A stretch of 21,446 bases of DNA from a virus (taxonomy: Duplodnaviria; Heunggongvirae; Uroviricota; Caudoviricetes): the IMG/VR virus record IMGVR_UViG_2671180360_000006; one strand, written 5' to 3'. How positions within the stretch are numbered: the stretch's first letter is position 1; each line of letters opens with the position of its first letter. Made by a program: the position numbers. Below, in pieces: positions 15,001-18,000 of the stretch.

Positions 15001-18000
15001 AGAATCTGCCCCACCCCTGACGGGTCAATACCGATATGGTCCAGTAACTCAGCCTCATGAATGCGACGCACATATTCCGCCACTTCCGCCGTGTCATCCC
15101 CGACACGCCGGACAATGGTCATATCTCCACAGGCAACAAGATCCTGAAACCGGGACGCCTCGCTCTTCCGTCGGACCACCGCGGTTTCATGCGCCCAGGC
15201 ATGGCCCCAGCCCAGCCATTCGCGGGTCTCCCGGTCACGCCCAATCACATACATCCCCAGCAGATCATCCAGCCCTCCGCCGTCAATCCCCACCGTCACC
15301 ACATCAGCACGACGCAGGATATCGTCCAGGCTGACGCGCCTGCCCTGCTCTTCCCAGAAATCCGCGCCCGCCCAGCGGTCAGAACGCAGGGCAAGACCGA
15401 TTTCCACATTGGCGTGTTTTGACATGAAGCCACGAAATGCTTCCTCACCAGCCTCCCGGGCTTTACGGTACTCCCGGTACAGAAAGGCCTCATCCACTGA
15501 ATAGCCGAGATTCGGATTGACCATGGCGAGGTTTTCCATCAGCAGGTTAGCCCCGCTTTCCACCATTTCAGGAGGGTGTTCAAATATCACCGGCAGAAAG
15601 TGCGGATCATGAATTTTGCCGTCGCGCACATCCCGGGCGTACTGCAGTTTCTGTCTGAACACCCCGGCGGGCGGTTCATTCGACTGGGTGGTCGTATACA
15701 CCACAAACCCTTCCGGGCGGGAGGCAAGGCCGCCTATGGCTTCACGTAACATGTCCTCCGCCTTGCACTGCTTGCCAAACAGCCACAACTCATCAATCAG
15801 CGTACCCACGGACTTGATACCGGACACCGTATTCGGATCGGCTGCCACCACCTTCAGGGTGGTGTCCGTCACCCGGTGGGTGATGGTCCGGATATGGGTC
15901 TGTACCTGGCAGAGGTCATCCAGATCATCGTCACGTCGTACCATATCCCGGGCAGGGTTGAAGGCGTTGGCCGCCACCTCCACAGTCGGGGCCAGAATCG
16001 TGTAACCCGCCGCCTGCCGCCAGTTCAGTAACAGTGCAGTCATCATGATCCCCGCGGCCAGCGTGGACTTCGAGTTTTTCTTGGGGATAAGGATAAAAAC
16101 TTCCTTGATATGGCGTACACCGGTCTGCGCATCGTAGGAGCCAAACAGGGCCGCCACCAGGTCAAACACCCACGGTGCACAGGACTCCCCGAACGTAGGG
16201 CTACCAGGTGCATCCACAATCCGCAGTTGTTTAAAAATCGCCAGGGCATGTGCGGCCTGCTCCGGATAAATCGGAGCCGGAATAATCGACAGCCCCTTTT
16301 TCAGGCGCTCTGCCCAGTCCGGGCAGGCCGTGCTCCACACAGGTATCATCCGTTGCCCTCATTATCATTATTCACCACCAGGCGGGGTGGTGGTGGCACC
16401 GCAAAACGGTTAGCCGCTTTTTTCGCGGCGTCACCTTTTGCCGATTTTTTACCGGCATCCCCTTTTTTGTGGTGCGTGAACTGCGCCAGCTTATAAGCCG
16501 CATCCAGCGCCAGCCTGGGGTCGGTATTAATGTTCTCCACCAGAAGACGCCCCATCGCTTTCACCGGATCGGGAAGACCATCCTCCATATATTCAATACC
16601 ATGAGATATCACCGCGGGCGGAGGCATCTCCGGATTGTTTTCGTCCGGCTGTGGTATTGCAGCCGCCTCACGGCGACGGGGTTTATCCTCCTGCTCTGAT
16701 TTTTTCTGCCGGTAAACAGGAACCTCATCCACCTCCACCGTCTCGCATTGTTTACGGGCTATAAACGCAAGCACCTCCGGATCTTTTGCCAGCTGCGAGC
16801 CTTTAACCCTGGCGGTCTTCGCCGAATAACCAGCGGCAATGGCTGACGCTGTTTTGTTTTTCCCGGACATGAGCGCCAGCGCAAATTTTCGTTTTTGCGT
16901 TGTCAGCACAGCCTCCTCCCGGGTCCAGAACGCACTCAGCCGGGTATGGTTCAGCCCATTTTTCCCGGCGTCTCATGCCGCAAATGTTAACTGCTGCCTG
17001 GTTAACATTTGCTGAAAAAGCCAGTTAACATTTTTTCCGCACAACAAACTGAATAATAAAGATAAAAACCGCAAAAATGCCCGGACAGCCAGTTAACATG
17101 TTAACTGCCCTGAAACGGGAATTTTTTCTCTGCGTGAGAGGGGGGGCGGTGTCCAAAGCGATCTTTTTTTACGCCGGATGATACCCCCCCCGGGTCGGGT
17201 TACAGTCCGATGATGTCGTCCGCTCTGCCACTACCTCCGGACACCTCCGGCAGCGTCGGGTCTGGCATACCACTCGCCGCTTCACGAGCAGACTTTTGTC
17301 GATGGCATTCGGTACAGAGCGTCCAGAGATTCGTCTCCTCATTACCACCACCGAACTGAAGTGCAATGCGGTGCTCAAGTTCACTGTCACAAAGGTCAAC
17401 CACACGCCCACAGAGACAGCACTGTCCGGCATCCCTCAGCCAGATACGACGCTTGAGGGAAACCCGGGCACTACCACTGACCCGACGCTGTTCACCCTTC
17501 AGGACATTCACCCGCCGGGTGTTCAGAGTTTTGATTCTGCCCGGTAACGTACGAAGCACAGCCATGTAAAATCCTCTCCATATAGCTTGTCACCAGAGGA
17601 AAGAAAATGTCATCGAAAAACCGGACCCGCAGAACCACAATCCGCAATATCCGTTTCCCCAATCACATGATTGAACAGATCAATATCGCCCTTGAACATA
17701 AAGGTTCCGGTAACTTTTCAGCGTGGGTTATTGAAGCCTGCAGGAGAAGGCTGGCAACAGATGCAACGCATCTGCGTCCGGCCAGCATGACAAATAACGA
17801 GAAATGAACGTTCGGTTACAGGAGCAGGTACCCACTGTCCTCCAACAATATTTCATCTTCATACCCGGCGGAACAAGACTTACCCAGCCGGAATGTACAG
17901 AATAACAACAGAGTGATAATTAATTTCTGATGAAATAATCAGGGTGCAGAAGGACTAAAGATAAACGTTTTCTTCACGCCTTTACGCGGCCTGTCCTTCT

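Follow-up and report, generated by a model that had tools for sequence, protein, structure and literature searches.

The window analysed here, that is the whole stretch of 21,446 nucleotides (nt) in IMG/VR record IMGVR_UViG_2671180360_000006, comes from a virus of the Caudoviricetes and carries packaging genes on its minus strand. This work concerns the 290-bp gap between its HNH endonuclease gene and its small-terminase gene, which holds a candidate cohesive-end site (cos). The HNH gene (17565..17200, minus strand) encodes 121 amino acids (aa) and matches Pfam HNH PF01844 with an E value of 5e-6. In its translation the motif residues were all intact, namely CxxC (C49-C52), H65, N75/N79, and CxxCH (C84-H88). 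Its stop codon lies at 17200-17202, and 52 nt separate the end of the gene from the overhang described below. On the other side of the gap lies the small-terminase gene (16909..16346, minus strand; 187 aa, GTG start; Terminase_2 PF03592). Its product is of the SPP1/SF6 G1P type with an N-terminal helix-turn-helix (HTH), and showed weak PDB matches to small-terminase DNA-binding domains of the SF6/SPP1 type. The HK97-type large terminase follows (16349..14688, minus strand; 553 aa) with the TerL_ATPase PF03354 and TerL_nuclease PF20441 domains; its sole PDB match was HK97 TerL (6z6d, E 2.2e-9, residues 84-534).

Both homopolymer tracts of interest lie inside this gap. On the plus strand, G7 occupies 17140-17146 and C8 occupies 17184-17191, with starts 44 nt apart. 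The original prediction had described two such tracts about 40 nt apart in the gene order HNH, G/C-rich segment, repeat array, small terminase, and both the spacing and the order were confirmed. G/C homopolymer runs of at least 7 were not enriched in the window (4 found against 6.15 expected); the significance of the tracts therefore rests on their conservation in relatives and not on the runs themselves.

The region showed 94-100% identity to its counterparts in many lambdoid phages and prophages of E. coli. This group takes in Shiga toxin (Stx) converting phages of the Stx1a, Stx2a, and Stx2c types as well as 1717, BP-4795, 2851, YYZ-2008, and vB_EcoS_phi330. It was found in 1250 of 5426 complete E. 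coli genomes (about 23%), with a median of 2 and a maximum of 8 copies per genome. Judged by this identity, the element is a Stx-type lambdoid E. coli prophage with its late genes on the minus strand.

The strongest evidence for the position of the ends came from Lys8385Vzw, a Stx1-converting member of this group that was induced and sequenced. According to PhageTerm it is of the cos type, with 3' cohesive ends 10 nt long, and its genome ends in the cos sequence CGCCCCCCCT (MT225100.1; Zhang et al. 2021, PMC7946995). The same 10-mer, CGCCCCCCCT, is found at minus-strand positions 17148..17139 of the window (17139..17148, phage top strand; AGGGGGGGCG on the plus strand) and consists of the G7 tract plus three flanking bases. 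The Lys8385Vzw record ends ...GGACACCGCCCCCCCT and starts CTCACGCAGAG..., and this junction matches the window minus strand 17154..17128 exactly, where 17154..17139 reads GGACACCGCCCCCCCT, followed by CTCACGCAGAGAAAAAATTCC. The 259 bp after the cut were 100% identical between the window and Lys8385Vzw. Lys8385Vzw and the same region of 1717, BP-4795, 2851, and YYZ-2008 share the gene order HNH, cos, small terminase, large terminase seen here. The HNH protein of Lys8385Vzw was 93% identical to that of the window, and the 3' end of its HNH gene was 88% identical. By this alignment the minus strand is predicted to be nicked at 17139|17138 and the plus strand at 17148|17149, which would leave 10-nt 3' overhangs. 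Positions below are counted from the top-strand nick, negative on the HNH side and positive on the small-terminase side.

Two phages of other hosts, with little further DNA similarity to the window, showed the same arrangement at their ends. The record of the Acinetobacter phage fEg-Aba01 ends ...GGACACCGCCCCCCAT, and its annotation gives the final 10 nt as a 3' cohesive end. This end, CGCCCCCCAT, was mapped with PhageTerm and confirmed by a heat/cool EcoRI restriction test (PMC7354433). The record of the Pseudomonas phage D3 ends ...GGACACCGCGCCCCCA with the cos end GCGCCCCCA, and the 9-bp D3 cos, gcgccccca, permits plasmid transduction (PMC12407980). The virion DNA of fEg-Aba01 and D3 ends in the core GGACAC-CGC(N)CCCC, that is GGACACCGC(N)CCCC, and the window carries this core at the predicted cut. 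The window 10-mer matched the Lys8385Vzw end at 10/10 positions and that of fEg-Aba01 at 9/10, and the D3 core was also matched. In D3 and fEg-Aba01, as here, the HNH gene lies just upstream of cos, a G-rich block lies upstream of the core at a distance of 24-29 nt, and an A/T tract lies downstream.

The hexamer GGACAC directly 5' of the overhang (17149..17154, minus strand) forms part of the putative nuclease recognition core GGACACCGCNCCCC. It was unchanged in the enterobacterial relatives, in D3, in fEg-Aba01, and in many IMG/VR phage contigs. The window contains several features that accompany GGACACCGCNCCCC in these phages. A C-rich sequence of the 9-10-nt class, homologous to experimentally mapped 3' cohesive ends, follows GGACAC; the cut at 17139/17138 falls between the HNH gene and the small-terminase gene (start 16909); G8 lies at −46..−53, in keeping with a G-rich block about 45 nt upstream; and A6 lies at +12..+17, in keeping with an A/T tract within about 30 nt downstream. 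The G-block and the A/T tract were also present in HK97, HK022, D3, fEg-Aba01, and the enterobacterial relatives. We consider it very likely, from this homology, that window positions 17139-17148 are the cleavage and cohesive-end site (the cosN equivalent) of an HK97/D3-type cos in a Stx-type lambdoid prophage. The original proposal of an HK97-type, HNH-associated cos site inside 17130-17199 is thus supported by homology to the mapped ends of Lys8385Vzw, fEg-Aba01, and D3. The cohesive end of this phage group has already been published, so the discovery value is small; the finding is correct but ordinary, and the module is of the textbook HK97 type.

The overhang is not a fixed sequence. Among 85 related loci it occurred as CGCGCCCCCT in 44, as CGCCCCCCGT in 20, and as CGCCCCCCCT in 15. 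Most relatives other than Lys8385Vzw therefore differ from the window in carrying CGCGCCCCCT or CGCCCCCCGT, and the G7 homopolymer is one allele only of a variable 10-mer. Some candidate evidence for the ends was uninformative and was set aside. Two IMG/VR contigs (L042 and L076) stop 4-5 nt past the overhang, but they are fragments of isolate genomes, and the vB_EcoS_phi330 record was opened inside the small-terminase gene. Literature searches for GGACACCGC, ACACCGC, and the overhang 10-mers returned noise or nothing, except for the D3 cos citation.

Several points weigh against the assignment of 17139-17148 as the cohesive end. The support for the ends of this prophage is drawn from sequence identity and from homology to the ends of relatives. 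The Lys8385Vzw ends were mapped by PhageTerm alone, and the coordinates printed in that paper contain a typographical error. The 3' overhang of D3 was reported as 9 nt and that of fEg-Aba01 as 10 nt; because D3 has 9 nt against 10 elsewhere, a margin of 1 nt applies to the placing of the bottom-strand nick. No relationship links HK97 gp1 to the small terminase found here, and the HNH protein of the window is weakly similar to HK97 gp74 (24% identity, E 0.06). Finally, the upstream G-run varies in length (5-13), which argues against a strict sequence requirement.

This G-run is the C8 tract, read on the phage top strand (17184..17191, minus strand; −46..−53). It lies outside the overhang, at a distance of 36 nt from it. 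Among the 85 related loci its length ranged from 5 to 13, while its spacer to GGACACC was fixed at 28-29 nt. Lys8385Vzw has G7 at this place, compared with G8 in the window. The position of the run was kept in relatives from Kluyvera, Enterobacter, Buttiauxella, and Salmonella, in which HNH was 61-71% identical. A run at a comparable position was present in HK97 and HK022 (G9), in D3 (G4TG4CG3), and in fEg-Aba01 (G6). In IMG/VR, 70 of the 120 matches to GGACACCGCNCCCCC had a run of at least 5 G within 50 nt upstream. By eye, the remaining matches were mostly D3-like with interrupted G-blocks, or lacked cos-like flanks, and the latter presumably arose by chance. On these comparisons the C8/G-run is not part of the cohesive end and appears as a separate conserved element. 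The original prediction had taken both the G-rich and the C-rich tract as candidate cohesive-end sequences; G7 is indeed part of the 10-nt end, but C8 lies 36 nt off and does not belong to it. We infer that the G-run is a conserved sub-site of the right-end cos, with a cosQ-like or a nuclease-positioning role.

In the PPompW prophages (L093; LC567822.1, PPompW_132418, 2700-4170), the IS110-family insertion sequence (IS) ISEc20 was found inside the G-run, at about window position 17187. Both flanks of ISEc20 are C-runs, gatCCCCC|IS|CCCCCCgaaagg. On the far side of the insertion the HNH and lysis genes are lost, and tRNA genes and Q follow directly. This arrangement suggests either a preference of ISEc20 for homopolymer sites or an IS-mediated deletion that disabled packaging.

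The two tracts could instead be the arms of one inverted repeat that folds into a DNA cruciform or a hairpin in the late transcript and serves as a terminator, an attenuator, or an RNA stabiliser, in which case they would not be cohesive ends. Both runs are conserved in relatives, and the minus-strand RNA 17205..17125 folds with G8 paired to C7 at −28.1 kcal/mol. This energy was ordinary for the composition, however, as the z-score was −1.29 and 26 of 200 shuffles folded as well. The RNAalifold covariation term was +0.29, with a double change in one of the 14 pairs. The commonest alleles, CGCGCCCCCT and CGCCCCCCGT, break the C-run without a matching change in the G-run, and the HK97 overhang CGCCGCCAAA offers no C-run to pair with its G9. 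No intrinsic terminator and no Rfam family was detected in the gap. The hairpin or cruciform was rejected on the z-score and the lack of covariation, and we regard it as very improbable. The conservation of both tracts, and their common location between the HNH and small-terminase genes, would also fit cleavage at or near each of them, giving an overhang of about 45 nt, a short terminal repeat, or alternative cuts. The ends of Lys8385Vzw, fEg-Aba01, and D3 contradict such a scheme, since they are 9-10-nt overhangs at the C-rich 10-mer only, and in all three phage records the G-run falls entirely within the right end. Moreover, overhang length is constant, unlike the length of the G-run (5-13). 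Ends at both tracts are accordingly hardly credible.

A different objection is that the site may be a relic, the prophage being defective or packaged by a headful mechanism with its cos-like sequence unused. Defective members are common in this group of E. coli prophages, and the PPompW prophages with ISEc20 in this region and without the HNH and lysis genes are an example of such loss. In the window, however, the packaging, capsid, and portal open reading frames (ORFs) are intact, and the large terminase has 553 aa as in Lys8385Vzw. The cos core is identical to that of Lys8385Vzw, a phage that was induced and packaged, and an HK97-type large terminase together with HNH points to cos rather than headful packaging. 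An unused relic is thus unlikely, though it deserves more weight than a hairpin or a pair of distant cuts. A functional-type 10-nt cohesive end at 17139-17148, with the G-run as a separate element, remains the preferred reading.

HK97 is the archetypal system for comparison. It has 10-nt 3' overhangs, and its HNH protein GP74 stimulates cos cleavage in vitro (PMC9410871, PMC11331095). An HNH-dependent, HK97-like packaging module was described by Kala et al. 2014, as cited in these two papers. The window has most components of such a module, as an HNH gene with an intact motif adjoins the terminase genes, and an HK97-type large terminase, a portal, an S78 protease, and an HK97-fold capsid protein are all present. 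The prohead protease and the capsid protein are encoded as one fusion ORF of 645 aa (14624..12687, minus strand; Peptidase_S78 PF04586 and Phage_capsid PF05065), and the portal gene lies at 12475..11111 on the minus strand (Phage_portal PF04860). The HNH, small-terminase, large-terminase, protease-capsid fusion, and portal genes are all intact ORFs. The order in the window is large terminase, protease-capsid fusion, portal. In HK97 the order is instead large terminase, portal, protease, capsid.

At the cut itself, HK97 and the window share ACCGCC at −12..−7, and the G9 run of HK97 lies at about −43..−51, compared with −46..−53 for G8 in the window. The large terminases are homologous (6z6d). 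The HNH gene of HK97 also precedes cos, but its distance from the right end is about 320 bp, a stretch that contains an unannotated ORF. The remaining HK97 overhang, read from the record end as CGCCGCCAAA, differs from that of the window, and HK97 has no ATGTTAAC array. The HK97 gp74 HNH shares 24% identity with the window HNH (E 0.06). The small terminase of the window showed no homology to HK97 gp1 (E 1.2), which belongs to a family unrelated to Terminase_2. The small-terminase site of HK97 spans +15..+29, and binding there depends on an A-tract (PMC11331095); since the two small terminases are unrelated, the analogy in A-tract and binding site is positional only. By its large terminase, HNH protein, capsid module, and cos core, the element is best placed with the HK97/D3-type HNH-assisted 3'-cos systems.

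The original prediction had also named lambda and HK97 cos as comparators. Of these two, lambda was the wrong one. The lambda cos (cosQ-cosN-cosB) has a 12-nt 5' overhang, a GpA/Nu1 terminase, no HNH, and a site for integration host factor (IHF) in cosB. The relatives of the window have 3' overhangs in contrast to the 5' overhang of lambda, and the terminase families here (PF03354, PF20441, PF03592) are unlike the GpA type. The IHF consensus WATCAANNNNTTR, with at most 1 mismatch allowed, had no match in 16910-17199. The best match of lambda cosN, GGGCGGCGACCT, in the gap was 9/12 (17144-17155, opposite strand); matches of this quality occurred at chance frequency (25 found against 25.5 expected), and the candidate was rejected. 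The site is not lambda-like in its parts, but the two systems share a logic in which the cut site is flanked by small-terminase sites on the first-packaged side and by a separate upstream element on the last-packaged side.

On the first-packaged side, the A-tract block CAGAGAAAAAATTCCC lies at 17117..17132 (minus strand), that is +7..+22 from the cut. In the distant relatives, with HNH 61-71% identical, the DNA similarity covered only about 100 bp, from the G-run to the palindrome described next. In the Salmonella phage FSL SP-016 this block of about 100 bp makes up the whole gap between HNH and small terminase. Within it, CAGAGAAAAAATTCCC was near-invariant in the Kluyvera, Enterobacter, Buttiauxella, and Salmonella relatives, and the intergenic DNA flanking the core aligned poorly. 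CAGAGAAAAAATTCCC is a candidate small-terminase or DNA-bending element.

A perfect 18-bp palindrome, CAGTTAACATGTTAACTG, occupies 17107..17090 (+32..+49) and is composed of two inverted ATGTTAAC motifs. Three further ATGTTAAC motifs were found at 16984-16991 (plus strand), 17001-17008 (minus strand), and 17024-17031 (minus strand); these three and the palindrome make up a cosB-like array. The repeat array of the original prediction is therefore real: the window has five copies of ATGTTAAC, each of them within 16984-17105, where 0.38 would be expected by chance in the window, and none of 100 shuffles reached five. All five positions were kept in the diverged loci L063, L075, and L212, with changes in the spacers. 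As the small terminase is of the HTH type (Terminase_2), the ATGTTAAC motifs are probably its binding sites and an analogue of cosB. Between motifs 3 and 4, at about 17009-17023, there is a 4-bp inverted repeat with a T5 loop, which showed compensatory change among the same three loci (CTGG..TCAG, CCGA..TCGG, and TACC..GGTA).

The palindrome was kept in the distant relatives as GT(a/t)AACATGTTAAC, and its ATG is the start codon of the small terminase there (MLTAQKRKF...). In these compact relatives (L004-L008 and L091) the start codon falls within the palindrome GTaAACATGTTAAC, 40 nt past the cut. In D3 and fEg-Aba01 the small-terminase start likewise lies 40-60 nt past the cut, compared with about 180 bp of extra DNA in the E. 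coli group, where the start is the GTG at 16909 and the extra DNA holds the three further ATGTTAAC motifs. The N-terminus of the small terminase, VLTTQKRKFA, aligns with MLTAQKRKFA of the relatives. The compact layout compared with the E. coli layout hints at a duplicated start region and at possible autoregulation of the small terminase. Two Acinetobacter loci similar to fEg-Aba01 (L174 and L213) carry two direct AAAGTTAAAG repeats at +32..+52, the position of the GTTAAC palindrome in E. coli, and a homologous Terminase_2 start (MALTEKMKKFA) follows closely. This suggests that a GTTAA-type recognition motif of the small terminase may be common across genera.

From these elements the following mechanism can be proposed. 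The HK97-type large terminase, aided by the adjacent HNH endonuclease, would nick the two strands 10 bp apart on concatemeric DNA, so that the 3' overhangs are 10 nt long and the top strand of the phage carries CGCCCCCCCT. To mark the site, the HTH-type small terminase would bind downstream of the cut, both to the A-tract block at +7..+22 and to the five ATGTTAAC motifs at +32..+155, and packaging would proceed toward the terminase and head genes, i.e. toward lower window coordinates. The G-run (−46..−53) would then lie on the last-packaged end, where it most likely positions or triggers the terminating cut, like cosQ of lambda. The identity to mapped ends in relatives and the pattern of conservation were observed; the cutting of this prophage copy, the requirement for HNH, and what the G-run and the small-terminase sites do are inferred.

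A wider proposal is possible, and we advance it tentatively, as the odds are somewhat against it. The G-run may be a required cos sub-site, acting as a cosQ-like signal or as a docking site for HNH that triggers the terminating cut, across the HNH-associated 3'-cos phages of Enterobacteria, Pseudomonas, and Acinetobacter, and in HK97. In the compact relatives, the palindrome at the small-terminase start codon might add translational self-repression. In the literature searched, we found no description of a function for the G-run, of the ATGTTAAC array, or of autoregulation by the palindrome, nor any experiment on the G-run. The G-run and the ATGTTAAC array are concrete targets for studying how HNH-assisted terminases recognise cos and terminate there.

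The predicted cut would fix the virion genome ends for a prophage family that is carried by about 23% of complete E. coli genomes, is often multicopy, and includes many Stx1, Stx2a, and Stx2c phages. Prophages residing in the same genome have almost the same cos site, in three overhang alleles, and this matters for cross-packaging and for the transduction of DNA that carries cos. With three alleles and up to 8 copies per genome, the sticky ends of co-resident prophages may be compatible or incompatible. The shared cos sites also bear on where genome records are opened.

Two minor observations concern the rest of the window. The only other G/C run of at least 7 was found at 10000-10006 (minus strand), within a 407-aa ORF at 9891..11114. 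Between the lysis cassette and the HNH gene lie a small DUF3950 ORF (17607-17807, plus strand) and an ORF with a TonB_C domain (17939-18280, minus strand), and these two look like moron-type cargo beside cos.

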